A DNA stretch of 60,891 nt, the filler included, from Basidiobolus ranarum (Eukaryota): assembly GCA_040143965.1 (NCBI GenBank). It is 2 parts of 2 records of this genome, joined end to end, with 100 filler letters (N's around TTAATTAATTAA, not from the genome) between each part and the next. Parts side by side here need not be neighbours in the genome. Positions count along the whole stretch, not along the records: positions 30,544 to 60,891 come from JASJQH010006976.1; 1 more part is not named here. The stretch is one strand, 5' to 3'. A program made the position numbers and the translations under genes. The notes below the pieces were generated by a model. That model worked only from the letters and a program-made list of their open reading frames with translations. It ran no database searches and was not told the origin of the DNA. Positions 14,391 through 58,474 of the stretch are shown one piece after another (the stretch's first letter is position 1; each line of letters opens with the position of its first letter).

Positions 14391-14753
14391 TATTACTACC
14401 TATTGTTATTGTAAATAAATCACAACCCATCTTATACATAGAACTCCTGCCTCTACTCTAATCTGAAATTTCCTTTTGTGATAACTATGTTTGGCATTGA
14501 GTATTAGGCTATCCATGTCGGTCGAAATCATATGCCCTTCTGACGCATTTTCGCTGATTTTTGCTGATTCCAGAGACTATTCAATGATCTTCAATTATAT
14601 ATTGATTTTCATGACAGGGCTAATTTATACTTTATGGTTGTTAGAAGACCTCAAATCATTTGTTGAACTACTAGTATCTTGAAAGTGAGGCTGAAGTAAC
14701 CTCTCCTTTCAGCTCCAAAGTATCCTTCGAACAACTGTCAGGATACCTTACGT

Positions 14754-17700
14754 ATGAGTCGGTCACGAAGATCGCAAGGTTATCAACGATACATTGACGA
14801 GGACGATTTCAGATCTTTCAGAGATAATTTCAAACCCCAATCCCATAACAGAGGGTTCAATAGTAGAGGTAGATACCCTCCACCTTTTTCGCAGCAACAT
14901 TTACCACCTATCTCTGACGAAAAGTTGAGATGTCTACTCGAACTCCGAATAAATCTTCGCAATGTTTGCTTTTCAGCTACTGCAGCTGAGGTTAAAAGCT
15001 TTCTTTCACAATTTGGCCATGTGGAAGTTTGTTCTATAGACAAAGATGAATATACTGAACGCCCTTTAGGTACAGGATATGTGATATTCAAACCCCCTCC
15101 AGAAAAGCTGACTTTCCTTTCAATGAACCATGTATTTAAAAGAAGAGCTCTGATACTTGAATTACCTGAACCAGAAAAATATCAACGTAGAAGTCATTCA
15201 AATGAAACTTTTAAGGCGGACGTGCTTCAGTTTGGTTTTTTGGTAGGGCCGACGAAATACTTAACTGAATGGGAATTAAAAGAAAACGTGAATCTAAGTA
15301 TAGACTATACAATTAGAACAATCAACCTTCAGTTCGATGTACGTGGTCGGGAATACAAACTAACTTCGAACTTTAAGGAAGTAGAACATGAAATTGCGGT
15401 CCAGGATAACTCGAATCAATTGATCTTGACCATGGCCTTCAACTATCCCCCTCGTTTTTGGATTAAAGACGACAAGCATGTTGGCAAAGATCGGTTCTAT
15501 TGGAGTACTCACGATTGCTGGAAGCGTATAACTAAATTATGGATGGTTCCGGTTACTATGGAGATGGCTTCAAGTAAAGAGCCAGCCACGATTTATTATC
15601 CGGACGAGGCGGTGCAATTGGGAAACTGGAGAATTTATCGGTTACATTTTAATGGAGCCTCTCAAAGTAGGATAAGACGTGAATTGGGGAATTTTATTAC
15701 TAAGGCTTCGAAGTACAACCTGATAAAAAAGCGTAGTCTCTTTAACTCGGTAGAAATCGCCAATAAAGACGAGTATACTCGATCACGTGTAGATATCACA
15801 GCACTTCCATTCGAAATACAATACATGATCGAATGCTTACTCTCTCATGATGTAATTAACGAGTATAGTGTTAACCAAGATTTCGTGGATCTTTTAAGCG
15901 ACATGTCACCTAGAATAGCCTTAGCAACACTGGAATTGATGCACGGGCTGAAGAAACCCATTTATAACATTATGAAGTCTATGATGAAGCAGACACAAAA
16001 CCTCAACCAGATCTATCGTACTACGGGAAAGGTGGCTCAACACGCCATCATGATACGCAAAGTAACCATAACTCCAACAAAGATTTACATTGAACCACCC
16101 AGCATTGAGACCTCCAACCGGGTAATCCGACATTTCTCCAATGAAAGAGAAAATTTTCTGAGGATAAATTTCTCCGAAGAAGGTTTTTTAAAGATTGGCG
16201 TTAACACCACCACTTTGGGACAGGTATATAGTCGACTTTACAACGTTTTGGTTCATGGTCTCGTTATTGGTAATAAACACTACGAGTTTCTCGCCTTCTC
16301 GTCCAGCCAGCTCCGTGAGCATGGATGTTGGTTCTTTGCGTCCACCGAAAAAGTGACTGCACACTCTATTCGTCACTGGATGGGGGACTTTCGATCGATC
16401 AAGAACATCGCTAAATATGCTTCTCGAATGGGTCAGTGTTTCTCTAGTACTCGAGCCATTGCTATGCAACCGGTCAAAGATATTCGGATGATACCGGATA
16501 TTGTCAGAAACGGATACACCTTCTCGGATGGTGTGGGTAAAGTGTCAATTGCTCTATGCAAGAAAATTGCCAAAACGTTGGATTTAGACCATGTTCCACC
16601 CGTCTTCCAATTTCGGTTGGGTGGTTGTAAAGGTGTCCTGGCACTATCCCCTTTCGTTCGAGGTGACCAGATACAGATTAGGCCTAGTCAAATCAAATTT
16701 GAATCTCACCACAACATCTTGGAGATTGTCAAAGTCTCTACATACATCCCATGCTATCTCAATCGACAAATTATCACATTGTTATCTTCCTTAGGAGTTC
16801 CGGACCAAGTATTTTTGAATCTGCAACAACACATGATAAAGCAGCTCAAGACGATCTCCACGGACGACGCGACAGCCATCAAAGTATTAACTCAAAATAC
16901 TGATGAGTACGGAATCACCCGAAGAATGATTGAGCTTATCAAGGCAGGACATCGCACGAGACAGGATCCATTTATCGTTAATTTGTTAACGCTTTTCCAA
17001 GTCTCCTTGCTCAAAGATATCAAGACAAGAGCACGGATCCATGTCTCCAAAGGATGCTTTCTAATGGGGGTATTGGACGAGACCATGAGTTTGCAGGAGA
17101 ATCAAATCTTCGTACAATACTCGGATCCAGAGAACCCAAACAGGCGTAAAGTGATTGTAGGTACATGCATCGTTACTAGGAACCCATGTTTTCACCCCGG
17201 CGACATTCGTGTAGTTCAAGCGGTTAATATTAAGGGTTTATCCCACTTGTACGATTGTGTGGCATTCTCTGCGCTTGGCTTTCGAGATACACCCAGCCAA
17301 TGTAGTGGCGGTGATTTAGATGGAGATTTCTTCACGTAAAAGAATTCTATTTACTACTTGTCTCATTCTTTAACTCATACTAACCCTTCTCTTAGTGTAA
17401 TATGGGACCCAAATCTTATTCCACCAACCAAGAATTACTCTCCTATGGAGTATGACCCTCCCGGCCCAGTGGAAGTGGATGAAGTACAGATAGATCACAT
17501 CAAGAAGTTCTTTGTCAATTACATCGCTAGCGATAACTTGGGACAAATATCGAATGCACATCTAGTCCACGCAGACAAACACCCTGATGGGGCATTCAAT
17601 GGGATTTGCTTACGATTAGCTCAATTGAATTCACGTGCGGTAGATTTCCCGAAAACCGGAGTACCAGCAGAATTCGAACCAGGCCTAAAAGTCAAAGAGT

Positions 17701-18527
17701 ATCCGGATTTTATGGAGAAACCGGAAGGGATTCCAACCTACAACTCGACTAGAATCCAGGGGAAGATGTATCGTTCAATAACTACTCAAAAATTCGTCCT
17801 TGCACCACCGGTAGGGTTAGATGAACGCTTACTAGTACCAGGATACGAAGAGTATCTCGAGGATGCTAGAAATCAAAAAGCAAGTTATGACATGACTTTA
17901 TTCGGGATTCTAAAGCAATATGGAATTCCAACGGAATACGAGGTGATCAGTGGGTTTATGGATAAATGGGTCATACTACTTGGTCGTAGAAAACATAGTG
18001 TACGCGAGCGTGTTATGGATTCCTATATGGCAGTGCGTTCTGCGTATATACATCAATTCGAAGAAGAATTCTATGATAAAAGCACTCAACTTATCCCCTA
18101 CGACGCCAAAGAAGCTATCTACAAGAAAGCCTCCGCGTGGTACTATACTACATATAGTCCAGATGAGGGAAATAAGAACAGTGCTATTCCTACGTTCTAT
18201 TCATTCCCTTGGGTTGTAGATCGTTATTTAAATGAGATTGCATTAAATCATCATCACTTGTCACAAACTAAACCTAAACCTAAACCCAGTATCTCCTTAT
18301 CTGGCCAAACATATCTGCTCACTTCGGAATCTAAGGACTCAACCGGCAATCAACTGAACGAAACTGTAGAGGTGGCCGATATCGAAGGAATGGACATTTC
18401 AGAAGCCAGCCAAGTCAGTGATATGGAATTGTCAAACGACCTTGTCAGTGACTCTACACGATTCAAGCAGTTTGATATTAACGATGAAGAGGATGATTTA
18501 GAGGAATTTGCAATGGATTTCCTTTGA
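14754..18527 (+). CDS. Eukaryotic RNA-dependent RNA polymerase (RNAi pathway) with N-terminal RRM
   Basis: RRM-like start (LRINLRNV...GTGYVIF), FLAFSSSQLR, ASRMGQCFS, FSDGVG, QFRLGGCKG, RNPCFHPGD and catalytic SGGDLDGD. One 60-nt intron at 17336-17395 joins the two ORFs. Confidence 0.96.
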
Positions 18528-30443: not shown

Positions 30444-30543
30444 NNNNNNNNNNNNNNNNNNNNNNNNNNNNNNNNNNNNNNNNNNNNTTAATTAATTAAN
30501 NNNNNNNNNNNNNNNNNNNNNNNNNNNNNNNNNNNNNNNNNNN
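30444..30543. other. Artificial assembly gap / contig-joining spacer
   Basis: 44 N + TTAATTAATTAA (stops in all six frames) + 44 N = exactly 100 nt. Confidence 0.95.
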
Positions 30544-30657: not shown

Positions 30658-31379
30658 TCTGGTGCTTTTCATCCCCCCTATTCTTCCCATATACTGGTAA
30701 CTTGTGAATATTTTGAGAGAGGGGTGTACATGGGGGATTGCATCCCCCAAACCCCCTGCTTTCTTTTTATACTGGGAGGACTGCATCCCCCAGGCCCCCT
30801 TTTTCATTCTTACGCTTACCAAAACATCTATACCCTAAATGTTTCCAGTACTAGTCAGCTTGAAAGTTAGTATGTTTTTGAAATTATAGAAGGTTCAGAC
30901 ATCTGACCTTTAGAACATTAGGGCAAGCCCAATTCTTCACATATACTAATTACTTGAGTATATTCCGACCCAATGGCGTACATGGGGGATTGCATCCCCC
31001 ATACCCCCTGCTTTGTTTTAAACTGGGAGGGCTGCTGCCCCCACACCCCCTGTTTTCCTGCTTACCCTTACCAGAACATCTATACCCTGAGCAACTTATG
31101 ACTATTAGTAACTCTCAGGACTAGCTCACTAGAAATGCCCTAGTTTTGGCTCCATCCACTCTGGAAGACTCTACTCAGGCCCCATCCCTTCTGGAAATCT
31201 TGACTCTTGGCTCCATCCTATCTGGAATACAATTAGGCCTAGCTTACTAGGAAACTCAGCTTTGTCCACATCTTGACTTTATTTCTGAATATTGTATTCT
31301 AAGTTGGCTTAATTATTTATTGACTTTGTTTAAATTGATAAATGAATATTACAACTTCTGGTGCTTTTCATCCCCCCTA
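30658..31379. repeat. Composite repeat with GC hairpins; possible non-autonomous mobile-element remnant
   Basis: Identical 23-bp TCTGGTGCTTTTCATCCCCCCTA at 30658-30680 and 31357-31379. Diverged ~110-bp direct repeats at 30726-30836 and 30978-31088, each with the hairpin TGGGGGAT-TGC-ATCCCCCA. Three ~30-bp GGC(T)CCATCC...TCTGGAA units at ~31148-31230. Confidence 0.75.
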
Positions 31380-33741
31380 ACTGCATTAAACTGATAATAC
31401 ATATAATAAGCAAAGACATATTTGCTCCTGGGCTTTTTTCATTGTAGATCTTTTAGTATCATCAATATTTCTGGTATGCTCCATGGATTATTTGATGTAG
31501 TGTTTGAATTGTTTGTTACTAGTAATATTTTCAGGCATAACATGTATTATCACTGCTCGTCAGAGAAAAGATGACAGATCACTATACCTATTGTGATCAG
31601 TGCTTCTTGAGTTCTCAAGCTCATCATAAGTTAACGTTTTCTCAGGCATATTTGCCTACCATTGATCTCAAGATTTGTAGCAGTTAGATACCAGGAAAAA
31701 TACTATGCAACATGTTCTTGATTTGAATATGCAGAAATTCTAAATTAATGTTGGCATATCAGTTCCTCAAACTAAATATATTATGGCGATACATGATTGT
31801 CATCAAAAAATCACTTCAATAAAAGCTTCAGTGAAGAATATTGAAACGTAAAGCATTGCAGCCATTAGTAAATCGTAATCCTAAGGCACCTTAATGGTTT
31901 AGAAGATACGACATAGTCGATTCTCTATCCTCTTATCAAATCGATACTGGCTATAGATTTCTATTCTCTATTTCAGCATGTCGCCAAGTTATGTGCCGCT
32001 ATAATGTAATGCCTGTTGCATTAATGGAGCTCGAGCCAAGGAATTGGTTTGGATTCCGAAAATGTATCGCTTTACTGCAACTAGATTATATCATAGTCAC
32101 ATTATCTCTTACATTCCCATATTTGGCGATTTGAATCAATATGCTGGTCATTATTAGACAGAAGCCACCTGACACACTTCACGCAACTTAAATATTTCTA
32201 GCCAACTGAAGCACTATCCGTTAGTTTATCTCTGATATACTATCGATATATCTCATCATGCAAATCTCGTGATAAATATTCTTCTCTTATAAGAATGAAA
32301 CATAATGGAATTAGGAGTTAGGTTAGAGCTTGGTTCTTCAGGCCTTTAGGTACCAGGGACAGTAACCGGATACTTACTTTTTAACGTAAAATACACTTAG
32401 CCCCAACCACCCCCCCTCTTGGATTTTCTAACATTTACCTTTTATTGACGTAAGAGACGGAAGATTATCACGGAATTCTTGTGTGATAAGTGCCCTCACT
32501 GCAAGAATGAAAGAATATAACAGCACAATTACACGGGTAATGGCTACTAGAATATAAACAGGGTAATTATTCTTGGCTTTTATTACAAGTAGCAATTAAC
32601 TTTATTGAAGAATTTTCGCGGTGGAATGTTGCGTATTCCCAATGAGGTGGGTAGAGACAATATACATGTGCATTCATATATAAAATTACAATTCCAGTAA
32701 CAATGAATATTTCGGCTAAGCAGATGCAAACGTTTTCACTGCTTGAAAGTAAGGAATTTCAAAGAATTTTCTTCCAACCTTCTCATCGACTGGTAAATGT
32801 TTCAATGCTTATGGATCCATCAATGTAGTAGATGCTTTGGAGGATCATGGGTTAAAAAAGGATACTAAATCAGCATGATCATCTTATCTAGGATTAGAAC
32901 TGATGAAGAATATATGAGAATGCCAATCTAACTTATATATATTGCGGAAAGGAGAGCACACTTCCATTTTAGGCTGTTAGTAATGTGTTCATTACTAATT
33001 CACCTCAATCCATTAGGGCTAGGTGACTCTGATGCGATCCAAGGCTAATATTTGGCCGAAGCCGAGATCATGATAATTTAGTTTTTACGGGTTAGATTTC
33101 ATTACTGAACTTTAATCAGCAGAGTTGCAAGAAGCTATTTGAAAGGGATGAGGATAGCTTGTTTTTGTAGCTTGTTTTTGCTACACATAACTCTTGAGCC
33201 CCCTTTTATTCCCCCACCCCATATGGTATCATAAACATTGTTGCCAAAAGTCTGCCAATTTCTAATTACAGCAACCACCAAAAATGGTCTGCCGATCAGC
33301 ACCACCAGATACAAGTTGCTTTGAGTAAAGTTTGTGATCGTAGGTGGGGTGACGTCTGAGCTATCATAGCTAGCAAAAGGGATCTAGAATATATTGCAAG
33401 TATATTAATACGGTATTGGGTGTAATGAAACTCTGAATCACGCCGGATTCTATTTAAGCCAACCACCGTGATGGAGAATTCCGATAATTCCTCCGTTCAT
33501 GCTCAGATATCTCGTTCATGCGGAAAAACTGGGCAATAACCACCAATTGGCCCAAATTGGAATTGGTTTTACAAGTAGTGTTGATTATTAGCATGTTGCA
33601 AAAACGATTAATCTTTCGCTATCTCTGAAGCGGAACTCTGTTTTGTATATAATATCGATTCGATGACCTTAAATAACAATTACTTTCGCACTACTCCATC
33701 CTAATCTCGCGCTCCTGTCTAGCGGCGATTAAGTAGAATCA

Positions 33742-36700
33742 ATGTCACAACATTCCCAGTCTGTGACTAAAGATGAGTTACCCAACTCAGAACTTTCGCA
33801 TTCAAAACCACATGCCTCTGTATCGTATGTCTTGGGTGATGATGATAATGCTAGTACTTGCATAGATCCATCAGACGACAGCATAGATGTAGAACGTAAT
33901 ACCGAAATGTTACGCGATCTTGAACGGCGTTTATCAAGAATGTCCACAAAGCAATCTCAAAAGTCGACCAACCCTGCTGATCCTGAGAAGGGTCCACCAC
34001 AAGAAGAAGAATTCAATTTCAGGGATTATTTAGAGTCTGGTGTACGTGCTGCTGACGAGAATGGCATTCGTAGACACCACATGGGTGTGACTTTTAAAAA
34101 CCTGACCATTGTTGGAGAAGGCAGTGATGCAACTAGTATATTAACCCTCCTCAGTCCTCTTAAAGCTATAGGAAGGATGCTCAATCCCTTGGGATGGTAG
34201 GTTATTCTGTTTCACTATTTTCTTGTCATGATAACTAACACAATTGGTCGTTGCAGGTTTACTGAGGCTAAAAAGGGTACTAAATTTGACATTATACACA
34301 ATGTTACTGGTTACTGCCCAGAAGGAGAGATGCTATTGGTCCTAGGCAGACCTGGCGCTGGGTGCTCAAGTTTGTTACGTGTCCTAGCAAATTCTCGACA
34401 AGGATTCCTTGATATCATTGGTGATGTTAAATTTGGCGGCATTTCTGCTGAAAATTTCGGTAAATACCTTGGTGAAGCCATTTATTGTATGGAGGAAGAT
34501 GCACATTACCCAGAGTTGACTGTTAAAGAGACTTTGGGTTTTGCGTTGAAAATGAAGACTCCAGCTCGTCGTTTGCCTGGAATTAGTCGTAAAGATTTTC
34601 AGAGAGAATTTATGGACACATTATTGAGAATATTTGGTTTAAAAAAGCAAGAAAATACGGTTAGTATCATCTCATCTATAGAACTTTACTTGTATAATTC
34701 AATCTTAACATTGATTTCTACCCTCCAGGTTGTTGGTAACGCATGGGTAAGAGGTCTTTCAGGCGGTGAGAGAAAGCGTATGACAATCTCAGAGGCCATG
34801 ACAGCTCGTAGTGCCATAGCAACTTGGGATTGTCCCACTAGAGGTCTCGACTCTGCTAGTGCACTGGATTATAACAAATCACTTCGCATTCAATGTGATG
34901 CACTCAACAAAACCACAATTGCTACTCTATACCAGGCTTCTGATAGTATCTACAATCTTTACGACAAAGTCATGTTACTTTATCTTGGACGTTGCATCTT
35001 CTTTGGACCTAAAGATCGAGCCAAGGATTACTTCCTGGAGATGGGATACACCTGTGAACCAAGAAAGAGTATTCCTGATTTTCTAACTGGTATTACCAAT
35101 CCTAATGAGCGTCTTATTGCTAAAGGATTTGAAGGTAGAGTACCAGAGAGTCCCGAAGAATTTGAAAGATATTTCCAAGAATCTCCAGATTATAAGCTTC
35201 TACTTCAGAACATGGTTGAGTATGACGCCAAGATAGAAAGTGAACAACCCGCAGCTGAATTCAAGAAGTACGTTCAAGAAATCAAGCAGAAAGGTGTCCG
35301 CAATGGTAGTGTTTACTCTGCCAATTTTTACGAACAGGTTGTTGCCCTTACCACACGCCAATTCCAGATCTTATGGGGAGACAAACATGCTCTATACGAG
35401 CGTTACATATCTGTTCTCATCCAAGCTTTCGTTTACGGTTCCGTCTTCTACATGATGGGTTTAAATTCCACTGGTGCCTTTCAAAGAGGTGGTGCACTTC
35501 TGAGTTCTCTCCTATTCAATGCCTTTCTGTCTCAAGCCGAATTACCTAACGTTCTAGCTGGTCGTATGACATTACAAAAACACAAATCTTACGCCATGTA
35601 CCATCCATCAGCATTCCATATAGCCCGCGTGGTTACAGATATACCCATCATTTTTGTTCAGTGTCTAATGTATGCAATCATTGCATATTTCATGTTTGGC
35701 CTGGAGAGAGATGCCGGGAAATTCTTCGTTTTCCTATTCATTAACATTTTAACGACCTTGGCTACGACTGATCTATTCAGGTAAAAGATATTGCAACACT
35801 GTTAAAATTATATGGAGTTAACGCTTATTTGGTTGGTAGATTGCTTGGTAATTGTAGTCCATCGATTTATGTTGCATTCCAGCTCACCGGTATTGTCTTG
35901 ATTACATTGATTACCTACTGTGGTTTCTCCATTCCGTACACCAAGATGCATCCTTGGGTATGTATTATCTTCTGTTGAACATGTTTCATCACAATGAATA
36001 ACACTAGATTGATTTAGTTATACTGGATTTATTGGATCGATCCTTATGCTTATGCCTTTAAAGCCTTGTTCACTAACGAAATGCGTGGACTTAAGTTTCC
36101 ATGTGTTGCACCTGCTGGCCTGGCACCCAGTGGACCCGGTTACAATGATGCTGCTCATCAAGTCTGTGTTCTTGCCGGTGCTAAGCCGGGTGAACTCTTT
36201 GTTACTGGAGACGATTATCTTGAAGCAGCCTATGGATACTTAACTTCCCAAATGAGTATCGATATTATCGCCGTGTTACTCTTCTGGTTGTTTTTCGTAG
36301 CTTGTAACATGCTTGCTATGGAGAAGATCAACTGGGTCACTGGTGGATTTGTTAAGAAAGTCTACAAAGCTGGAAAGGCCCCGGGTCATTCCGATGAGGA
36401 AGAATTAAAGCGAGTTCAAGAAGCCCAAAATGCTTATGACAACATGGGCGACAACTTCGCTGCTGAAGCCGGTATATTTACTTGGGACCGTGTTAATTAC
36501 ACTGTTCCATTCCAAGGCAGCAAGCTACAGCTTTTAACTAACTGTGAAGGCTGGATTAAACCAGGTCAGATGACTGCTCTTATGGGCTCATCCGGCGCTG
36601 GTAAGACCACGCTACTTGATGTACTTGCAAAGAGAAAAACCATTGGTGTGGTTGAGGGAGATATCTTCCTGAACGGAAACGCCCTACACATTGATTTTGA

Positions 36701-38419
36701 ACGTATCACAGGATATGTTGAGCAAATGGATGTACACAATCCTAATGTAAGTTTACATTGTATTTTTGTATTTCCAGACGACTACTAATCATATTTGTGA
36801 ATTTTCAGCTAACTGTTCGTGAAGCTTTGCAATTTTCGGCCAAAATGCGTCAACCTATGGAAACTCCACTAGAGGAGAAGTACGAGTATGTTGAAACCGT
36901 CCTGAAAATGATGGAAATGCAACATTTAGGTGATGCACTTATTGGAATGCTCGAAGCTGGCGTAGGTATATCGGTGGAAGAGCGTAAACGCTTAACTATT
37001 GGTATGGAACTTGTTGCCAAACCAACTATTCTGTTCTTGGATGAGCCTACTTCCGGACTGGACTCTCAATCCTCCTTCAATATCATTAAATTTATTCGTA
37101 AACTTGCCGATTCTGGTATGGCGTTAGTGTGCACCATCCATCAACCTTCTTCCATTCTATTTGAGCATTTCGATCGACTATTGTTACTGGCTCGTGGTGG
37201 CAAGGTGGCATACTTTGGAGATATTGGAGATAATTCAGTTATTATGAACGATTATTTCGAACGAAATGGTGCTCGTCGTTGTGATCAATCCGAAAACCCT
37301 GCCGAATACATTCTGGAAGTCATCGGCGCTGGTACTTCTGGAAAGGCGATGCAGGATTGGACTGAGGTGTGGAGAAATAGCCAAGAGGCCATTGAAGTTA
37401 AAAAAGAATTGGAAAGATTAAATGCAAATGCTACTAACGACATCAAGGACCCCAACGTTCGTGAATTTGCCACCAGTTCCACCTATCAAATTTGGGAAGT
37501 ATACAAGCGTATCAACCTAATTTGGTGGAGAGATCCCTACTTTAATATTGGTCGTATTTGGCAAGCATTCTTTATCGGACTTCTCAATGGTTTTACTTTC
37601 TGGAAGTTGTCACCAACTCCTAGTGAGTTACAACTCCGTTCTTTGATTGTTTTCCAAATTTTGGTGATGGGACTGACCTTGATTTTCTCGATTCAGCCAC
37701 AATTTATGGCTCAGCGTGCATTCTTCCGACGTGACTATGCCTCAAAATACTACGGGTTCTTTGCATTTGCCCTTGCCATGATCCTTGTAGAAATTCCCTA
37801 CATGTGTGTAGCTGGCGCCCTTGGATTCTTACCACTGTATTGGACAGCTGGTTTGCAGACCACCGCGTTGGATGGATTCTACTTATATCTTTTGTTGATT
37901 ATTTTCCTACTTTTCTCCATTTCGTTTGGTCTAGCCATTGCGGCTATGTTACAAACCATGGCACAAGCCTCCATCGTAACTCCAATTCCCAATACATTCC
38001 TCTTTCTATTCGCCGGTCTTCTATCACCTCCTGCAGCCATGGTTACCTTTTGGAGAGTTTGGATGTATCCCCTCGATCCTTATCATTATTTCTTGGAAGG
38101 ATTTGTGACGACCATCTTCAACAACATGCAAGTGAGATGTATTGAGTCCGACTTCACTCGATTCACACCACCAAGTGGACAAACCTGTGGTGAATACAGT
38201 GCTAACTGGTTGAATTCCACCACTGGATATTTACAAGATCCATCTGCTACCGATGTATGCAAGTATTGTCAATACACAAGTGGTGAAGAATTCTTGAAAG
38301 TATTTGAATGGACGATTAGTCATAGATGGAGAAATTTCGGAATTCTATGGTGTTACTACATCTTTAATATATCGGTATTTATATTATTTGTCTGGCTTAA
38401 CAGGAAACCAAAGCGATAG
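33742..38419 (+). CDS. Full-size PDR (ABCG) pleiotropic drug-resistance transporter, multi-exon
   Basis: NBD1 GRPGAGCS (Cys-type Walker A), LSGGERKR, WD Walker B; TMD1; NBD2 GSSGAGKT, ISVEERKR, FLDEPTSGLD, CTIHQPS; TMD2 with the PDR_CDR Cys-rich loop (TCGEY...CKYCQY...RWRNFG). Confidence 0.96.
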
Positions 38420-41528: not shown

Positions 41529-42503
41529 ATGAAAGTTACACTTGTCGCCTCTTTATTCTACCTTGCTACTGTAACTGCTCTACCTACTTATAATGCTGGT
41601 AGTTCTGGAGGAGGTCACGATGTTGACGACTACAATAATGGTCACTCTGGTAGCAATGTGGACTACCAACACTCGGACGCTGGCGGTGGTGATGCTAAGA
41701 ATTACGGTGTAGATGATTATGATAACCATGACGGTAATGGTGGTGGAGGTGAACACGATGATAGCTATGGCTCTGGTGACCATGGTGCTGATAATGACTA
41801 TGCAGGTGATGATCATGGTGGCGATGACAGCTATGGATCTAGTGGACATGGCGGTGGTAGTGATGATGATTATGAAGGTGGTGGCCATGATGGCGGTGAT
41901 GATCATGAAGGTGAAGGCCATGGGGGCGAAGACAATTATGGATCTAGTGGAAATGGCGGTGGTAGTGGTGATGATTATGAAGTAGGGGAGCATGGTGGTG
42001 ATGCCGATGATTATGACAATGGGGGTAGTGGTGGTAATGGTGGTGAGGCCAGTGAAAGCTATGGCTCGGGTGATCACAAGGAAAGTGGGGGAGATGATGA
42101 ATACAGTCACGGTGAAGATGAAGATGACTATGATAGTGGAAATGGCGGTAGTGGTGATGGGTACAAATCTGGTGATCACGGAGGAAACGGTAGTGGTGAC
42201 AATTACGACTCTGGTTCAGGCTCTGGTGGACATGACGAGGATGATAAAGGCTATCACGCAGGTGGAGTGGGTACTGGGCAAAGTTACGATACCGATGGAC
42301 ATGGAGGAAGTGGTGGCAGTGGTGGTGATGATAGCTATACTAGTGGCAACGGTGGTGGTGGAAGCGATAACAATCACAGTGGTGATGACTACGAAGGCGA
42401 TCACAGCGGGACTGATGAAAGTTACGATGGTGGTGAAAACCATTACAGAAAGAGATTCAACAAAAGAAGAATTAATAGTGTGCGTCCGGGATTGACCCTC
42501 TAA
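41529..42503 (+). CDS. Secreted low-complexity Gly/Asp/His/Tyr-rich repeat protein
   Basis: TATAAAA at 41461; signal peptide MKVTLVASLFYLATVTA-LP; imperfect HGGDDSYGS / GGGSDDDYE repeats; basic tail YRKRFNKRR. Confidence 0.8.
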   Translation: MKVTLVASLFYLATVTALPTYNAGSSGGGHDVDDYNNGHSGSNVDYQHSDAGGGDAKNYGVDDYDNHDGNGGGGEHDDSYGSGDHGADNDYAGDDHGGDDSYGSSGHGGGSDDDYEGGGHDGGDDHEGEGHGGEDNYGSSGNGGGSGDDYEVGEHGGDADDYDNGGSGGNGGEASESYGSGDHKESGGDDEYSHGEDEDDYDSGNGGSGDGYKSGDHGGNGSGDNYDSGSGSGGHDEDDKGYHAGGVGTGQSYDTDGHGGSGGSGGDDSYTSGNGGGGSDNNHSGDDYEGDHSGTDESYDGGENHYRKRFNKRRINSVRPGLTL

Positions 42504-43170
42504 ACACTGGGAGAGAATATGTCTGATATAGTATTTATTTAATCACATATATCAATAAATTATACTTGAATTACTTGCCACAACTTTACTGCTGAAGTTA
42601 CAATATAAATCTGGAATTATACAACAAGAATATTAGTCGATACTCTACGTAACAGATGGAGACCAAATCAAATGCATTTCCATATTTTCACATAGAAGTT
42701 AATCAATGGGCAACAATGAAATATGATATGCTGCTGTCTGAACTCCATGTTTGGAACTCAAAAATGTGTCATAGAAACGTCCAGTTAGACCAACTCTAGG
42801 ATTTTTGCCATAACCTAAAGTTGTCATTATAGGTACCTGATGGCTAAGCCGGATATCAATATTTCAATCTCAAACAACCACCACAGGCCAAAGGATCAAG
42901 AGAAGCTATTTTGGTTTCATTAAAAAACAATTTCATTTTGTATGGCAGTGAACAAGACTATAATAGCAATCAATAAGATTCTATTTAAAATGTAATTTAT
43001 TATTATCATTAGAAATATCTTATTCAATGTTGGCTTTTCTGACATATCCCAGTTTGTTAATCATTGTTATCAGAACTTTGTTAGCAATCAAATTTAGTAA
43101 ATAGGATAGTATTCACCCCTAATAGTGTACTGTGAAGAAGTTTACCACAGTATCCAGTAAATGACAGTTT

Positions 43171-44754
43171 CTACCTAGCAGGTCCAAACCACCTATTCAA
43201 TACTACTTGCAACTGCTTATGTTCAGCGAGTGAAGGCTCTTCAGCAGCCCATGCGATGTATCCATCTGGACGGATCAGTAATGCAGCTGGATAATTATTT
43301 TGCTGTTTTCGAGCACTCACCAATTGAATCCTATCAGTCCATCCTACGATTGTTTCCAATAGAGTATCTTTTCCTGTCAAATTGAGCAATATCCCCCGGC
43401 CAGATCTCATTACTTCGCCGAGACGCATCCCATCAGATAAAAGAAGATCTTCACAAAAATGACCTACTAACTGGTGATCTCCTTCGTCGTGTCCGTAGTC
43501 AATGTGTGAGCTACTGACCATATCGGCGAAGTACCGCTTAGCGTCAGCTAGGCCTAATACTTCCGACAGAACCTCTCGCAAGGCCATAGACTGTGGGTCT
43601 GGGCGAAATAATGCAGTCTGGGCTCGACTGTTTCGCATTACTAGTTCAGCCGGAGCGTAACGCTCCATGGTGTAAGTATCTAGCAATGTCTCAGGAGCAA
43701 GATTACGAATTACCAGGCCCAACTTCCAGCCAAGATTTGCCGCGTCTTGTAGGCCTAGGTTGAGTCCCTGTCCTCCAAATGGCGGATGAACATGTGCAGA
43801 GTCACCAGCAAGCAGGACGCGACCAGAGCGATAGGTTTCTGCTTGGCGAGCGTGGTCGGTAAAGCGAATGGCATTATTCATGCTTGTGACTGTGACTTTT
43901 TTACCACTTACCCGGCGCAGGCAGTTCTGAAACTCCTCAAGGGTCACCTCTGAATGGCGGTCCGGACTATCTAGTCCAAACTCGAAGACACGGATGGTCC
44001 CTGGAAATGGCGTGACTAGAAGCATACCCCGTTCCGTAACGGTTATTCCACGAGGTAATAATTCAGGCTCAGCTACATCAACCAGTGCGCTTCGTGCTAC
44101 CATCGTTGGATCTGTACCGATAAATGCAATACCAGCGGATTTACGTACCACGCTGCGTCCCCCATCGCAACCTATGACCCAGTCTGCTGTGAGTGTCTGT
44201 CCATCACTGAGCTCCACCGTCACAGTTTCCTGCCCAGAATTGATGCGTATCGCCTCAGTAGCGTGACGAACTTCAACTCCAAGGTTTTTTGCGTGTGAGG
44301 ATAAAAGTTCTCTTACAGCTTGTTGTTGCACCAATAGAGGCCCCTTCAAAGATTCTAGTTCGTCCTTTTCTACAACAATCGGTATTCCAGCGAAATGTCC
44401 CTGAATTCGATGTCGATCGTGTCCTAAGGTAGATAGTAAGGACTTGAATTGCTCACTCATGAGATTATTTGTCCCGTCAGTAAGTATACTCAACATCCCA
44501 TTAGCAGGTGATTGGGCCATGGTAGCTCCTTTGACCAGGGTTTCCTCGGTAATGCCACGGAAATCTAAGGTGCGCAAAGTTCGTTCATTCAACCCACGGT
44601 TCTCTTGAGCAGTATACTCGCGTGGTTTGTCTTTATATCTTACACCTACTTCAGTACTCTCGAGTACAAGTGGATTCACTCCAGCGAGCTTCAATTCAGC
44701 GGCTAGGAAGAATCCAACTGGTCCGCCTCCGACAATAACGACTTCGTATTTCAT
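43171..44754 (-). CDS. Group A FAD-dependent aromatic monooxygenase, bacterial type (Rox/RdmE/PheA-like), intronless
   Basis: GGGPVG dinucleotide fold, IGCDGGRSVVRK (DG motif), YRSGRVLLAGDSAHVHPPFGGQGLNLGLQDAANLGWKL (GD motif), C-terminal LIRPDGYIAW...RWFG. Confidence 0.93.
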   Translation of the reverse strand: MKYEVVIVGGGPVGFFLAAELKLAGVNPLVLESTEVGVRYKDKPREYTAQENRGLNERTLRTLDFRGITEETLVKGATMAQSPANGMLSILTDGTNNLMSEQFKSLLSTLGHDRHRIQGHFAGIPIVVEKDELESLKGPLLVQQQAVRELLSSHAKNLGVEVRHATEAIRINSGQETVTVELSDGQTLTADWVIGCDGGRSVVRKSAGIAFIGTDPTMVARSALVDVAEPELLPRGITVTERGMLLVTPFPGTIRVFEFGLDSPDRHSEVTLEEFQNCLRRVSGKKVTVTSMNNAIRFTDHARQAETYRSGRVLLAGDSAHVHPPFGGQGLNLGLQDAANLGWKLGLVIRNLAPETLLDTYTMERYAPAELVMRNSRAQTALFRPDPQSMALREVLSEVLGLADAKRYFADMVSSSHIDYGHDEGDHQLVGHFCEDLLLSDGMRLGEVMRSGRGILLNLTGKDTLLETIVGWTDRIQLVSARKQQNNYPAALLIRPDGYIAWAAEEPSLAEHKQLQVVLNRWFGPAR

Positions 44755-44822: not shown

Positions 44823-44830
44823 TATTTATA
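44823..44830 (-). promoter_or_regulatory. TATA box of the monooxygenase gene
   Basis: Minus-strand TATAAATA about 70 nt upstream of ATG 44754. Confidence 0.45.
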
Positions 44831-45057
44831 CCTACTTGACTTTATGGCTACTTTTCGTCCACCAAATTACAGCCTACTCTTGGCTCATTTCAGTTAATAG
44901 ATTGCGGACGGTTTAAGGATCTAGTATTCGATAACAGTAATTTTTGATGCATCAATTACTGAAATTGAATTTATTGATCTTATCATTGCCTAAATATTCG
45001 GCTTTTCGATAATAAATTTTTGAGAAATTATTGTGAATAGACATCAGAGAGGATTGT

Positions 45058-45433
45058 TCGGAACCAGCGAATTCACGGATAAATGGAGCGACTAATAATC
45101 AACATTTTCAAAAAAGTGTGTAATCGCTAAGATAAGACTCGATATAGCACTTCAAACTACAATATCGAAATGGTATTCGTAGTGATACAGCTATGAAGGC
45201 TTACTCTAATGCTATTAAGATATCTACCAATTCAATCTATGGAGTTTATGGCGCTAAAGGTAATCTACATTTATTAGCTGAGACTATTTCTAGAGTAGGT
45301 CGAGAGAGTTTAGATAAAGCAGTGATCGGAGCCAGAGAATTCACGGATAAATGGAGAGACTAATAATCAGTATTCTCATAAAAGTGTGTAATCGCAAAGA
45401 TAAGACTCGATATAGCACTTCTGACTACAATAT
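45058..45433. repeat. Two 108-bp diverged direct repeats
   Basis: 45058-45165 and 45326-45433 share TCGGA.CCAG.GAATTCACGGATAAATGGAG.GACTAATAATCA...GATAAGACTCGATATAGCACTTC..ACTACAATAT. Confidence 0.9.
45148..45363 (+). pseudogene. Family-B DNA polymerase fragment (motif B / region III)
   Basis: Stop-bounded frame reads ...AMKAYSNAIKISTNSIYGVYGAKGNLHLLAETISRVGRESLDKAV..., i.e. K-x3-NS-x-YG-x2-G...A-x2-I-x3-GR. Confidence 0.75.
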
Positions 45434-47248
45434 TTTTTTATGCAATAGAAATTTAGACCATCATTGAATGTGCCTGAAAGCAATGTGATCTCATTTGAAT
45501 TGTTTGTCGTAACTCCTTGAACTGCAACTTGCTTATCAATATTGATATTTATGCCGACAAATAATGTCAATATTTTCACGAGTATGTGTTCATATATGTA
45601 CTTATCCAAACCTCATCATCAATATTTAACTTTCTTGGTGACGAGCAAACATATGAACTTGCCCTAAAGATCCACCAATGTACCGATGAATAAGAAACAC
45701 TTTCTTAGGGAACTTCACATAAGCATCTCCTTTGTCACGTCAACAGGAATGTTAGCGGAGAATAGGTGAACCTCTGCTTCGTTGAAGGAAGAAACCTTAG
45801 CCCTTCGGTACTACAGTATTACCAGAGCCAACTCTATTTTACATTTCTAGTCCAACGCTGCTACTCTGGCATTATGTGGACTACAATCTGTGTATACGAT
45901 CTCTTATACCCCACCAAAGCTACCCACGTCACTTATATCAATAGAAGTCCTAGATTATTCGCACCTAGCTTAGAATTCATCTTTTGGCCACGCTCAATGC
46001 AATTATCATTTTTACCTTTGCCCCATTCTGCAAATGGATATTGAAATCCGTTGGCTTGAAGTACTTCTTATGGAACCATAGTTATGGCCTACAGAATCGA
46101 TATTAACAGGGTCAGAGTACAGATCATAAGTGGCTACTTTGTTATTGAATGGGCTCTGATTGGTTGGGTTATAACACTTGAGTTTAAAGACATATTGATA
46201 ATCTTCCAAAGGCGAATCCGAGGTGTAAGCATATTTGTTAGTATTAGAGAAAGTTAATTCACCCATTGGTCTTCAGTCGGAGTACCCTCACTGTAGTCGC
46301 CTCCATAAAACCCTGCTTCCTCTATCTGTAGAGCAACCAGAGCTAGTAAAGCATGGTGACTGTGGTTGGAGACACAAGAGTAAAATTCACCAGTGATACT
46401 AAGACATCAGGTGTAATGCTTCATAGAGCATCTTTTTATGCTAGAGGAAGTTCTGTTTATGAAACGTTTCAACCTGAACTTTTATGTCAACTCCACAGTG
46501 AAAATGAATTTCACAATGGATTGGCATTTATCTGTAAGCTTTAATTTCTTCTAATTCATAGTCACACAATAGATATAGCATATACATATGAAAGAGTAGA
46601 GTGATTTGATATATGTATTAAGTTGAATGCCTACTTAAGCCAAAACCAAAGTAAGGTTCTCCTCAAGTAACAATCTTGTGAAGATTTAACTACCTTAATG
46701 ATGAATTCGTCACACATGCTCACGTGCATTAAATAAGGAAATGTTTGTTTATGATGTATTTTAATTGATTGAATGCCTGGTATATCTTTATTGTTCCTTA
46801 ATCTACTCCACACCCACTGATTCGTAAGTTAGATACAAGAAAGCTGGATTCGAATGTTTCACTTGTCTCGCAACAATCCAATCATCATTGAAGCTATAAA
46901 TAGTGAAAATAGAACTCGCTTTCAAACTGGGTTAGATAGTTATGACTCTGAAATGCAGTTCAAACTGAGTTAGTTTTTTTTCAACTGTGATCATAATATA
47001 AGAAGTGGTGCATAGCACATCCCAAATAATTGCATAGCCTTTATGGAGATCAAAGTGAGATCTTATTAGCTCATTTCAGGGCCTAATAGGTTTTGGCGCA
47101 ATTGGCACTCATTGAGTGCATTCGAAATCTTCAACAATCATCTATAGCACATACCTCATCTACCCTTGCATTCAGTATATAATCCCTGACTTGTACTTTC
47201 ACTGCTATCATCAATTTCTAAATAGTCTCGTCGGTAGCATTTTCTAAG

Positions 47249-49085
47249 ATGCATCCGTCTAAATCCACTCAGCCTTCCCCATACAAAAATTGTTCCCGAA
47301 TCTTGGCCTTTAGCTTAACCTACGGCCTACTTCTATCGACTTTTGCCACCCCAGCTTCTGCTGATGTTTCCTCAGATCTTTTAAAGTGTTTGAAGAAAGC
47401 CAATGTCGAGACAGTTGCTCCCACTGATACTTCCTTTACCAACGCTCGGTATGGCTTTGATCTCAGATATACATACAAACCTAGAGCTGTTGTCTACCCT
47501 GCGTCGTCTGCGGAAGTATCCAAGGCAATCAAATGTGCCGTTGACAACAAAGTAGCTATTGCTCCACGTAGTGGAGGTCACTCTTATGAAGGATACTCCA
47601 TTGGTGGTACTGATTTAAGTTTGGTTATCGACTTGAAAAAATTTACTACCGTTAAAGTTTCGAAGAACCTCGCCACTGTTGGTGGTGGTGTGAAGCTCTC
47701 ACAATTATACTATCGTCTTTGGAACGCAGGTGGTTATGCAGTTCCTGGTGGAACCTGCCCCTCTGTTGGTATTGGCGGTCACACTCTGGGTGGTGGGTAA
47801 GTGAATATATTTAACTCTACTTTGATAGCTCTCAGCTGCAAACATTTGACTCACGAATCACTTCCTTCTCTTTCTTGTAATTTCCTTAGGTTTGGCCTGT
47901 TCAGTCGTAAATACGGCTTGATGGCTGATAACCTTGCCTCTGTGAAGGTTGTTCTAGCAAATGGAACCGTAATCGATGCTAGTGAATCCAAAAATAGTGA
48001 TCTCTTTTGGGCCCTTCGTGGTGCTGGTGGTGAGTATCTTCATATTATGGACATTTTTTTATTACAAATTTCTTACGAGCATCAATTTCCATATAGGTGG
48101 ATCCTATGGTATAGTTACCGAGTTTGTCTTCAAAGTTTTCAAGGCCCCAACAAAGGTCACAACATTCTCCTATGACTTTAACTCGAAAGACTATCTGAAG
48201 GCAGTGAAAGCATATAATACATGGGGTGTTAGCGCTAGTCGTGATGTTGGTGTTGAAATGTACTGGGACAAGAATGGCATCTCATTTTATGGAACTTTCC
48301 TCGGAACTAAGGACAAGTTGAACGCCGCTGTAGCGGTAAGTACAATTACTTTTCTCTTCTCTTTACTACACGATAACTGAAGAAAATTTCTGCATCGTTA
48401 GGGTTTTCTTAAAAATGCCCCTAAGTACACTTCTTCAGTTAAAGAATCTAGCTTTTTGGAATCAATTCTTCGTTGGTCATACTTGGATACCAAGAATATC
48501 AAGGACCTTGACACTCTCCCCGAGAAAAAGATTCAAGATTCTCGATACACCAAGGTAACTAGAATTCGGCGATTTTTACATGATACGAAGTGTTAAATAA
48601 TTTTTTTCTAGGGCAAATCACTGATGTACAAGAATATTTTATCTGACGAGGATATTAATATCATCAACAAATACGTGTCCAAACCCCCCACCGGAGCCAC
48701 CGCCAGCTATGTCATTATTGATTTGTGGGCAGCTAGTAAAATTAACGAACAACCTCAAAGCGCAACTTCTTTCATTCATCGCTCCACCACCTTCGCAATT
48801 GAATATCTTGCTGAATGGGGAGACAACAGTATCGTTTACAACAAGCCTGACTGCAAGCCATGCCTTAAATGGATCAATGACTTCTACAACGAAGCTAGCG
48901 TTGCTTTCTTGAAGCGTCAAACCCCAATTGAGGCTTACCAGAACTATATTGATCGTGATCTCAAAAATTCAATGACCGCATATTATGGCAGTGCCAGTAA
49001 CATTAAGAAACTCAAAGTAGTTAAGAGCGCCTATGATCCTGGGAACAATTTCCGTTTCCCTCAAAGCATTCCATTGGTTGGTTAG
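47249..49085 (+). CDS. Secreted FAD-linked oxidoreductase, berberine-bridge-enzyme-like (AA7-type), multi-exon
   Basis: Signal-like N-terminus; RSGGHSYEG (covalent-FAD His), GTCPSVGIGGHTLGGG (second covalent Cys), DLFWALRGAGGGSYGIVT; C-terminal BBE domain YQNYID...YYG...VKSAYDPGNNFRFPQSIP. Confidence 0.93.
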
Positions 49086-55775: not shown

Positions 55776-58474
55776 ATGTATGAAGACGACATGACAGCGT
55801 CTTTTTTTCAATCCAACCCGGAAACCATTTCTCCCCCTCAATCGGCTTATTTTTCAACTACTTCAGTGAATCCTGCTTTGGGGGATTTGGCAAATCCGTG
55901 GGGACCTCAGGGTAGTGGTTCAATAAGTATAGATACTGTACTTGGTAAGTGAGAACTTACACTTAAGAGAATATTTCGTATAATTATTTATCACCTTCAC
56001 CTACTTTAACAGACGGTATAAAACTGGCGCCCATCTATGAAACAGCTTTTACTTTGGCCAATCCAATAAATGATCAGATTACTAAAGAATCACTCGATAA
56101 AATATTAAGCCTTAGTGGGCTATCTTCCGCTTCGCTTGAAAAAGTACCGAAAATACTAAGTTTCTTGAATTTAACCTTATGAATTAAGGACTCCAGTTTG
56201 AAGGGAAATTTCCATTAACCTATTTACTTTAGATATTGACAGTAGGTCTTCCAGTTGACCGGTCCAGTATTGATCGAAAAGTATTTGATGTATTACTTAC
56301 TTTAGTGGCACTTTGTCAAAAAAATATGGGTAAGAATTTCTAGGATGTTTAGAATATGATCACCATATCACTAAATATAAAAATTTTCTCTCCACAAATT
56401 AGAGGTGTCACTAGAAAATATCGTTACTCATAAACAAGGTAAACATAGAATATTTATGATACATTGATTTGAAAATTCTCAATACTTTGTTTCTAACTGG
56501 TATCGAGTTTGCAGATCTACCTACACCGTTACTCCCCAATCTCTCAAGCATTGATTTCACCAGAAAAATCGTACCATCAAATGGCACTGCTAGTGTAGTA
56601 ACCAAGCCGGAGCGTTCAGCTGGGGAGTCGGATCCTTGGCGAACTGACAGTAGCACTATTGTATCATCAAATGACCTAGCTAGCGTAGAAACCAAGCCGG
56701 AACGTTCAACTGGGGAGTCGGATCCTTGGCGAACTGAGAGTAACCCAATCGTACCAATAGATTCCATTATATCGGATAAGCCTTTAGGTCAATCTAGATC
56801 AGATGGGTTGCCGGTATCCAACGGGTTTCCAACCATTTCTAATGATGCCAAGTTGCTTATGGAAGATGATTTGATTTCCGTACAAATTTCTTTACAAAAA
56901 GGAGGCATGATATTTAAACATGTAAATTACACGGTGGAATCCAAAGTAAGATTTATCAGTTACAACAGGTCAATTGTTATTTGGGAGATATTTACCTTTG
57001 CTTTCTTTTAGCAACATTTGTCCAGTGTTGTTCGAAGATACAGTGATTTTTGGTGGTTATTGGAAATATTGAGCAAAAGGTATCCATCTCGTATGTTGCC
57101 CACCATACCACCCAAGAGAATTGGAGGTAAATAGTCAACAGAAATGATGGATTTTGACTTAACCTGTATTACTATTCAGCCATGAATTAATCCCAAATGA
57201 TATGATTTTAGGAGATGAAGCATTTCTTGAAAGGAGACGCAAAGGATTGACTAGATTTATAAACTTCATCGGAAGACATCCAGTTTTGAAAAAGGATGAT
57301 ATTACCATTGTATTTCTAACTGAACCAACGGTAGTGAAAATCTTAACGTTTATCTTTGTAACTGAATTCTAACACTACTCCATGCCACTTTACAGGATAT
57401 GGGAAGTTACCGAAAGCTACATAAAGTTAGTATCGATGGAGAATTTAGATCAATCGAAGTTACGGATCACATGAAAGCCGCTATACCTCATAATTTGGAT
57501 GAAAAATTGAACACACTTCGTGGGAGATTAGATGCTTCTATCGAATACTATAACAACCAGTGCATGCTAATGGAACGTATAACAAAGCGACAAGGGGGTA
57601 AGTGCCACATACTGCCAGTTTATCCTATTTCTAACTAACTAAATCATTATAGGCACTTCAGACGATATTCTACGATACAGTCAAGTATCAAAGTAAATTG
57701 ACTCAATCTCCTGACGTATATTCATTGCATGCCCTTCATTAACATACTTGATATACGTTAGATCTTTGGCAGAAAACGATAAAGAATGCCACGACATTGA
57801 CTGTTACAGTTGCCCACAAATTGCGAATGGAATCAATATGATATCTGATTGCTTTAAACAAGTGAGCTCTATAAAAAAACGAGAGGTATGTAGATTATGG
57901 GATCCGGTATACCTAGCGTATGATGACTCATTATTAAGTTAGGTTGATTCATCGGTCAATGGTGTAGTTGAAAGCCTGAGGCGACAAAAAGAAGTAATTA
58001 TTTCTTTCAAGGTAATTCCAACATTCCCATTATTTTAATACGGAGCTTTTACCCTGATCCTAACCCCAACCCAAAAATCACAGGAGCTTCTTGAACGCAA
58101 AGATAAAATCATCACAAGCGAGGTAGACACCCTCGCTAGTCGAATTCAATCGAATCAAGAAAAGTTGAATCATCTTCGTAGTTCCAATGGATCAGCAAAA
58201 GAGATTCAGAAGTTAACTAGTTCTATTGAACAGGTATGTTATCACTCAATGTCAACTTTAGATTCAATTTACTCACAGTACGTAGGACCAGAAAGAAATC
58301 ATCGATTCTAGAAAGCATGAAGTATTTATTCAATACTGTCTATGGTGTGAGTTACAGTTCTATCATCAGAATGCTGCCTTTGCTACTTTACTCTACCAGC
58401 ATTATATCAGCGATCAGATCAAATTTAACACGGAGATAACTCAAGCATGGACAGACTTGTCGAGAGTTTTGTAA
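55776..58474 (+). CDS. MVP1: Sorting nexin Mvp1/SNX8 (PX-BAR) with EH-like N-terminal region, many exons
   Basis: [17 protein letters not shown]-..[62 protein letters not shown]-like helical exons ending [14 protein letters not shown]. The exact 3' end is uncertain. Confidence 0.87.
56568..56756 (+). repeat. In-frame 90-bp (30-aa) coding tandem repeat in Mvp1
   Basis: [30 protein letters not shown] / [30 protein letters not shown] / IVP. Confidence 0.9.

Follow-up and report, generated by a model that had tools for sequence, protein, structure and literature searches.

A flavin monooxygenase of bacterial type in a fungal genome raises two questions: whether the gene truly belongs to the genome in which it was found, and what its product might do there. 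The case considered here is an intronless gene of Basidiobolus ranarum, located in a 60,891-nt stretch of the assembly GCA_040143965.1 that was analysed as a whole (hereafter the window). An earlier note on this DNA had presented the gene as a candidate for a horizontally acquired, Rox-like monooxygenase that would let the fungus inactivate or modify bacterial antibiotics. We consider it very likely that the gene is of actinomycete-type bacterial origin and is integrated in the fungal genome. The fuller reading, in which this actinomycete-derived, integrated gene encodes a group A flavin adenine dinucleotide (FAD) monooxygenase that oxidizes an aromatic small molecule, is one we hold with somewhat lower but still considerable confidence.

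Gene structure, domain architecture and fold

The gene was delimited as follows:

43171-44754, minus strand: flavin monooxygenase coding sequence, 527 aa, no intron (open reading frame (ORF) call; stop codon at 43171-43173)

The ORF comprises 527 uninterrupted codons from ATG to stop, which agrees with the earlier description except that the strand, left unstated there, is the minus strand. The stop-to-stop frame extends just 2 codons beyond the ATG-initiated ORF, and the start is therefore fixed by the upstream stop located 2 codons before the ATG. Over its whole length, from the first residue as far as the C-terminal WFG motif, the encoded protein is colinear with its bacterial homologues (510-531 aa), and the gene is therefore intronless. 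All the bacterial motifs that had been quoted for this protein were found in the translation, namely ELKLAGVNPLVLE, GHFAGI, RFTDHARQAETYRSGRVLLAGDSAHVHPPFGGQGLNLGLQDAANLGWKL, LLDTYTMER, RAQTAL and GRGILL, followed by GWTDR, LIRPDGYIAW and LNRWFG.

By its Pfam domains (FAD_binding_3 and Rng_hyd_C) the protein is a group A FAD monooxygenase with three domains, and comparison with its relatives revealed two additional segments:

43627-44748, minus strand: FAD-binding and substrate domains, residues 3-376 (Pfam PF01494, 237.4 bits vs. a cutoff of 22)
43177-43476, minus strand: C-terminal thioredoxin-like domain, residues 427-526 (Pfam PF21274 Rng_hyd_C, 84.2 bits vs. a cutoff of 27.5, E=9.2e-24)
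44419-44526, minus strand: extra segment of about 36 residues (77-112), found in the actinomycete subclade but not in Rox
44632-44652, minus strand: 7-residue insertion, residues 35-41, present in 2 of 17 alignment rows, those of the fungal protein and of the Nonomuraea protein P0002 (columns about 43-49)

The PF01494 match covers profile positions 2-349 of 349 (E=3.4e-70), and the E-values of the two domains put the ORF far beyond chance. The FAD_binding_3 region contains GGGPVG (residues 9-14), CDGGRS (196-201) and LAGDSAHVHPPFGGQGLN (314-332); we take GGGPVG, CDGGRS and LAGDSAH (314-320) to be the group A FAD fingerprints, i.e. GxGxxG, the DG motif and the GD motif, respectively. The columns of these motifs are invariant or nearly so across 100 aligned sequences, with D197, G198, G317 and D318 strictly invariant.

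The AlphaFold2 model of the protein (predicted local distance difference test (pLDDT) score: 90; predicted template modelling score: 0.92) is weak only at the insert regions 41-50 and 81-110, and the C-terminal thioredoxin-like domain is modelled mostly at pLDDT >90. By both sequence and fold, the best matches are MtmOIV, OxyS, FlsO1, Rox/RIFMO, BexE, CabE/PgaE and AlpK (30-36% identity), and Foldseek reported target-normalised template modelling (TM) scores of about 0.79-0.89 against solved members of the family (for 4k5r, 4k2x, 6brd, 5kox, 2qa2 and 2qa1: E 4.8e-49 to 1e-39, TM 0.83-0.89). The substrates of these enzymes are large polycyclic aromatics. The rifampicin-monooxygenase/polyketide-hydroxylase layout that had been proposed for this protein is thus supported alike by Pfam domains, matches in the PDB and Foldseek. 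Against Rox and MtmOIV the fungal protein aligns in two stretches, with query residue 76 corresponding to residue 69 and query residue 113 to residue 70 of the solved chain; the segment in between is common to the aligned proteins P0002-P0028, and is predicted to form two short low-confidence helices (pLDDT 50-60 at residues 81-110).

The fungal protein keeps 52 of the 53 columns that are invariant among 63 bacterial members of its clade (delimited below), and 115 of the 132 columns that are conserved in at least 90% of them; the 17 changed columns carry mostly conservative, AT-directed replacements (L to F/I, V to I, H to Y). Its terminal branch in the trees (0.35-0.37) compares with 0.46-0.49 for the sister P0002. 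Judging from these intact motifs, the product is probably an active aromatic monooxygenase.

Bacterial ancestry

A search of 5.8 billion proteins returned 7991 matches, of which the best 120 were listed, down to a score of 355 bits. Among the matches listed, the best apart from the protein itself is P0002 of Nonomuraea (53% identity, 590 bits), and the others are at most 45% identical. Every organism name among these best 120 of 7991 matches is bacterial, and almost all are of Actinomycetota. There is no fungal name among them, while the database includes fungal proteomes, that of B. meristosporus among them; in particular, no B. meristosporus orthologue occurs in this set of 120. The named matches in the set likewise include no relative from bacilli, which the earlier note had listed next to actinobacteria as a source of the family. 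Among proteins shorter than 289 aa, none exceeded 54% identity to the query, and the short fragments are equally distant from the query and from P0002. In an exhaustive profile-free search the monooxygenase stands alone in its 50% cluster. Species-representative genomes gave a best identity of 43% among the matches listed. Nor did a search of the family of Nonomuraea rosea (301 genomes) reveal a closer donor: 5 of these genomes match at E<=1e-110, none with more than 45% identity.

The phylogenetic analyses, whose trees contained no named fungal homologue, agree with the database searches. FastTree (246 rows) paired the query with P0002 with a support of 100, inside a 64-row clade also supported at 100, in which 35 of the 63 other members are named, all of them Actinomycetota. 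IQ-TREE (LG+C20, 63 rows) recovered the same pair at 100 within a 20-row clade at 99, whose named members are again all Actinomycetota, and in a careful tree run with 39 rows the pair received 100/100 and the clade 100/99. In these trees the gene is not nested among fungal monooxygenases. The kinship with P0002 is also supported independently of any tree, because the two proteins have in common the private 7-residue insertion as well as the ~36-residue segment found throughout the subclade. Twelve candidates without organism names, chosen for the lowest ratio of Gly, Ala, Arg and Pro to Phe, Tyr, Met, Ile, Asn and Lys (GARP/FYMINK), were placed in the tree at path distances of 2.3-3.9 from the query, vs. 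0.93 for P0002.

Composition and integration in the fungal genome

The fungal identity of the host is borne out by the window itself, which carries genes for a Suv3 helicase, a eukaryotic RNA-dependent RNA polymerase (RdRP), a Gti1/Pac2 protein, a PPR protein, a GPP34 protein and a PDR/CDR ABC transporter (all by Pfam). The Suv3 ORF is 92% identical to that of Basidiobolus meristosporus, with the next match at 59%, so that the window belongs to a Basidiobolus different from that strain. Apart from the monooxygenase gene, four genes are relevant here:

14700-18527, plus strand: gene for an RNA interference-type RdRP with an RRM-like N-terminus (Pfam)
33733-38419, plus strand: PDR/CDR-type ABC transporter, fungal context gene (Pfam ABC_trans_N, ABC_tran, ABC2_membrane, PDR_CDR)
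41529-42503, plus strand: Gly/Asp-rich repetitive protein, convergent neighbour (stop 667 nt from the monooxygenase stop)
47222-49085, plus strand: BBE-like FAD-linked oxidase, divergent neighbour, multi-exon (consecutive ORF pieces match Pfam FAD_binding_4 and BBE)

The introns that had been attributed to this genome are indeed present: the RdRP gene has one 60-nt GT..AG intron (17336-17395) with an ACTAAC branch site and an in-frame stop inside it, and the BBE-like oxidase gene has a 93-nt GTAAGT..AG intron (47797-47889). The window contains two runs of 44 N (30444-30487 and 30500-30543), which are 12.6 kb away from the monooxygenase gene. The latter lies within 30,348 N-free bases (30544-60891) that also hold the ABC transporter gene, the Gly/Asp-rich gene, the spliced BBE-like oxidase gene and a gene for a HAD hydrolase.

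The G+C content at third codon positions (GC3) of the monooxygenase gene is 0.407, vs. 0.36-0.44 in nine host ORFs and 0.84-0.97 in the four homologous monooxygenase ORFs that were scored from actinomycete loci. Its relative synonymous codon usage correlates with that of host genes at 0.49 (host range: 0.36-0.79). At the first codon position, the G+C content is 0.62, and the GARP/FYMINK ratio of the protein (1.57) compares with 0.49-0.84 in host proteins and 2.28-5.78 (median 3.63) in the 63 bacterial clade members. The flanks of the gene have 31-36% GC, and no homology to TetR or to any other bacterial flank was detected in the window (tblastn matches all at E>1; tblastx reported, outside the ORF, 5 pieces, all tiny and of low complexity). 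Since GC3 is host-like and yet the amino-acid make-up leans toward high GC, we interpret the gene as an old integrated transfer and not as contamination; the residual high-GC signature of the protein also argues for the bacterium-to-fungus direction. The horizontal origin from bacteria proposed in the earlier note is thus upheld by database matches, trees, composition and the N-free contig with fungal genes. The transfer appears clean and well bounded, with just the ORF kept, and the combination of fully host-like synonymous sites with a protein that is still of high-GC type makes it a possible case for studies of amelioration in Basidiobolus.

Genes of bacterial origin have been described in this genus before. 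Tabima et al. 2020 (PMC7466969), in a study of B. meristosporus and B. heterosporus centred on core genes of nonribosomal peptide synthetases (NRPS), polyketide synthases (PKS) and terpene pathways, attribute 2-5% of the genes in Basidiobolus to bacterial sources, among which Actinobacteria rank third; 61% of these genes are intronless, and their composition is indistinguishable from that of host genes. The monooxygenase resembles that gene set, as described there, in its bacterial best matches, fungal flanking genes, lack of introns and host-like composition, and in coming from Actinobacteria, a frequent source in the set. That study recognized transfers by several features, one of them a read coverage within 2 SD of the scaffold mean; three others are found here as well, namely bacterial best matches, fungal genes on both sides on the contig and a phylogeny nested among bacteria. 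Neither "monooxygenase" nor "FAD" appears as a word in the main text of PMC7466969, and we found no description of this gene in the literature on Basidiobolus monooxygenases or on fungal transfer of rifampicin monooxygenase. It is therefore a further case in a genus already known for its bacterial genes, and it leaves the picture of Basidiobolus unchanged.

Relationship to Rox and to polyketide oxygenases

Could the protein be a true Rox-type monooxygenase that inactivates rifamycins? Rox structures are among its best matches (5kow, 3.1e-82; 5vqb, 8e-82; target-normalised TM 0.87-0.89), rif_monoox is the top-scoring NCBIfam model for it, and the equivalent of Arg43 of RIFMO is retained as R53 (our mapping, from the HMMER alignment and the residue list in PMC11375879). 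However, the score against rif_monoox (NF033145) is only 362.4 bits, in two stretches, vs. an equivalog cutoff of 800 bits, which is exceeded by proteins from the loci L034 (913 bits), L045 (922), L039 (854), L057 (851) and L056 (818), with L030 borderline at 798. In the IQ-TREE analysis the Rox equivalogs form a clade of their own (support 100) in a 22-row group (99), whereas the query belongs to the other, 41-row group (99). In identity to the query, Rox (34-35%) does not exceed MtmOIV or OxyS (35-36%); the query is as distant from Rox as from MtmOIV, OxyS and PgaE, and the 36-residue insert is missing from Rox. Moreover, the target of rifamycins is bacterial RNA polymerase and not the eukaryotic RNA polymerases, so that Rox activity would provide the fungus with no self-protection. 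For the 14 rifampicin-contact residues of RIFMO listed in PMC11375879, which cites Liu et al. for them, the HMMER alignment has 5 identities (R, L, F, P, G; with an inferred numbering offset of 3), two of which, P325 and G327, show no variation in the alignment of 100 rows. The mapping is alignment-dependent: with MAFFT, 5 of the 14 contact sites shift, and of the 9 that map robustly 3 are identical. Altogether, the assignment as a rifamycin monooxygenase, suggested by the Rox-like label of the earlier note, appears highly improbable, and our results contain no evidence that a fungus inactivates rifamycins.

Rox/RIFMO (5kow, 5vqb) thus has the family and the fold in common with the fungal protein, and differs from it in clade, in the equivalog score and, as far as the alignment-dependent mapping to the PMC11375879 list goes, at most of the substrate-contact positions. 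MtmOIV (4k5r), OxyS (4k2x), PgaE/CabE (2qa1/2qa2), FlsO1 (7vwp) and BexE (4x4j) have the same full-length fold as the fungal protein (target-normalised TM 0.84-0.89), as well as its FAD motifs and C-terminal thioredoxin-like domain, and the chemistry to be expected is that of group A flavin hydroxylases. They are 30-36% identical to it and lack the segment of residues 77-112. In addition, their genes are located in biosynthetic clusters, unlike the fungal gene and its closest bacterial kin. On the basis of these sequence comparisons the product is assigned to the PgaE/MtmOIV/OxyS/Rox structural family and, within it, to an uncharacterised TetR-associated subclade; by the tests that were run it is not Rox.

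Genomic context of the bacterial relatives

The nearest kin of the fungal protein are P0002 from Nonomuraea sp. NPDC003709 and the proteins encoded at the loci L001 (Nonomuraea rosea), L003 (Streptosporangium) and L006 (Amycolatopsis). These TetR-paired monooxygenases of actinomycetes have the same three-domain layout and length as the fungal protein and the ~36-residue segment in common with it, at 53% identity for P0002 and 43-45% for the rest. The differences concern the surroundings and composition: the fungal copy is without the TetR neighbour and without bacterial flanks, its GC3 is 0.41 vs. 0.84-0.97 in the four actinomycete ORFs scored, and in its amino-acid make-up there is a shift to residues with AT-rich codons.

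In 8 of the 9 actinomycete loci of the subclade, a divergent gene of the TetR family adjoins the monooxygenase homologue, and at the ninth none was found by the ORF filter. The other neighbours vary from locus to locus (GntR regulator, two-component system, FGGY kinase, S9 peptidase, glycosyltransferase), and no conserved biosynthetic neighbours were found across the 9 loci. The TetR pairing together with the variable neighbours corresponds to a stand-alone oxidation gene induced by a ligand and not to a tailoring step embedded in a cluster; judged from these gene orders, the pairing points to inducible oxidation of small molecules in the bacterial relatives. At E<=1e-140, no NCBIfam model matched the query, P0002-P0004 or the proteins of the nearest loci. 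The TetR-linked branch of the Rox/PgaE family is therefore uncharacterised in bacteria too, and the ligand of the TetR regulator would be informative about the substrate of the fungal enzyme.

Three Nonomuraea/Streptosporangium genomes (G001-G003, with the loci L001-L003) encode 6-10 paralogues each at E<=1e-60. This large and mostly uncharacterised expansion offers many possible donors.

Proposed origin and function, and alternative explanations

We propose that a Basidiobolus lineage acquired the coding sequence alone of a stand-alone actinomycete flavin monooxygenase, the TetR gene and the bacterial flank being left behind. During a long residence in the fungal chromosome the synonymous sites would have reached the composition of the host, while the protein would have remained under constraint. 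In group A enzymes, the substrate binds, FAD is reduced by NAD(P)H, and a C4a-hydroperoxyflavin is formed that hydroxylates the ring. The product of the fungal gene, presumably cytosolic, would likewise bind a bulky aromatic of phenolic or quinone type, NAD(P)H would reduce the FAD, and the C4a-hydroperoxyflavin formed with O2 would hydroxylate an activated ring carbon, possibly followed by ring opening as in Rox. For the latter enzyme, C-2 hydroxylation of a large naphthol-type antibiotic and subsequent ring opening are described in PMC7283461. The likely role of such a reaction would be detoxification or catabolism of an aromatic met among bacteria in soil, litter or the guts of herptiles. 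A role specifically in the oxidation of xenobiotics or antibiotics we regard as a tentative possibility, with which the TetR pairing of the bacterial relatives would be compatible, as it fits inducible xenobiotic oxidation; that the fungus inactivates or modifies bacterial antibiotics, as first suggested for this gene, is something that we infer and do not observe. Rather unlikely, in our estimate, is a more specific scenario, in which the fungus would have captured the enzyme half of a TetR-controlled inactivation module and would use it, possibly together with the BBE-like oxidase and the PDR pump, as a chemical defence that oxidizes an antifungal or signalling aromatic polyketide of actinomycetes sharing its habitat in guts, litter or soil. 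If true, this would represent an antibiotic-inactivating enzyme carried by a eukaryote, whose substrates would belong to a class other than rifamycins or tetracyclines.

Several observations weigh against the proposed origin and function. The subclade has no characterised member. The nearest bacterial relative is just 53% identical, which implies that the donor lineage is unsampled, and a second fungal copy was not found in the database searches; a fully ameliorated gene in a single genome is slightly awkward, as it requires losses or sparse sampling of the lineage. A cluster of the ESM Atlas with the FAD_binding_3 + Rng_hyd_C architecture includes Ascomycota, and the architecture is therefore not unique to this fungus; these Ascomycota proteins are excluded solely by their absence from the best 120 of 7991 matches. 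At 0.871, the share of 90%-conserved columns that are kept falls just short of the lowest value among the bacterial members (0.882; median 0.977), and the TATA-like and AATAAA motifs that flank the gene (see below) give no above-chance support.

As regards the origin of the gene, an assembly chimera or bacterial contamination would equally account for the bacterial best matches and the absence of introns, and the window does contain two runs of N. These runs are remote from the gene, however, which sits in N-free sequence with spliced fungal genes on both sides; a GC3 of 0.41, far from the values of the four actinomycete ORFs, AT-rich flanks devoid of bacterial ORFs and a protein composition partly shifted to that of the host are also contrary to what a contaminant would exhibit, and on this sequence-based evidence we assign to contamination only a negligible probability. 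Nearly as improbable is that the gene is an old fungal one which was passed on vertically and has disappeared from almost all lineages. The host-like composition speaks for this reading, as does the Atlas cluster of the same architecture that includes Ascomycota; but the gene is placed three strongly supported nodes deep within Actinomycetota, with Nonomuraea as sister, and the best 120 of 7991 matches, from a database containing fungal proteomes, include no fungal protein and no orthologue from B. meristosporus, a species close enough for the Suv3 proteins to be 92% identical.

Given an actinomycete-derived gene integrated in the fungal genome, two alternatives concern what it does at present. 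It is unlikely that the gene is an unexpressed or decaying relic of transfer that has no current function: the gene is a singleton in public data and its conserved columns are retained slightly less well than in every bacterial member, but the 527 codons are still open after full re-equilibration of synonymous sites, all invariant columns but one are kept and the terminal branch is no longer than that of the sister. The main functional rival, which accepts the same transfer but assigns to the enzyme a biosynthetic role, is that of a tailoring enzyme in a secondary-metabolite pathway of Basidiobolus. Most solved relatives (MtmOIV, OxyS, PgaE/CabE, FlsO1, BexE) are biosynthetic tailoring enzymes, the divergent neighbour encodes a BBE-like oxidase and the PDR transporter gene is 4.7 kb away, and Basidiobolus genomes are described as rich in biosynthetic clusters, many of them derived from transfer (PMC7466969; 10.1101/2025.03.31.646025). 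Against this role, no PKS, NRPS or terpene cyclase was found among the scanned ORFs of at least 120 aa in the window, and the closest bacterial relatives lie outside biosynthetic clusters, beside TetR genes and otherwise unrelated neighbours. We consider a tailoring role a minority possibility, more plausible than the relic.

Flanking motifs, neighbouring genes and repeats

Around the monooxygenase gene, the following elements were identified:

44823-44830, minus strand: TATAAATA, possible TATA box (69-76 nt 5' of the ATG)
42996-43001, minus strand: AATAAA, possible polyadenylation signal (170 nt 3' of the stop; motif match only)
45050-45165 and 45318-45433 (span 45050-45433), no strand assigned: direct repeat of 116 nt in two copies (89% identity)

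Of the earlier statement about a eukaryotic TATA box upstream of the gene, the presence of the motif stands, but its significance does not: TATAAATA is not over-represented, as it occurs 8 times in the window where 6.5 are expected, a count equalled or exceeded in 35 of 100 shuffles. It is compatible with a promoter and is by itself not evidence of one. The copies of the 116-nt repeat are 268 nt apart from start to start, inside the 2.4-kb intergenic region upstream of the monooxygenase gene, and a third copy was not found within the window. On the other side of this intergenic region lies the BBE-like oxidase gene, and two flavin oxidases of the chemistry of aromatic compounds are therefore adjacent.

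The convergent neighbour (41529-42503) encodes 324 aa, with the hydrophobic N-terminus MKVTLVASLFYLATVTALP followed by Gly/Asp/His/Tyr-rich repeats, and a 41-nt unit recurs in it, with 7 copies in all. The ORF matches no Pfam family; by its sequence, the product looks like a secreted low-complexity protein.

Two further repeats were noticed elsewhere in the window. A tandem 90-nt repeat (56568-56747; 2 copies, 84% identical) lies within overlapping ORFs on both strands (56411-56788, minus; 56460-57011, plus), of which the plus-strand ORF is without a Pfam family. Just to the right of the N runs there is a 92-nt direct repeat (30676-30767 and 30928-31019; 82% identical) with the palindrome-like core GGGGGATTGCATCCCCC.

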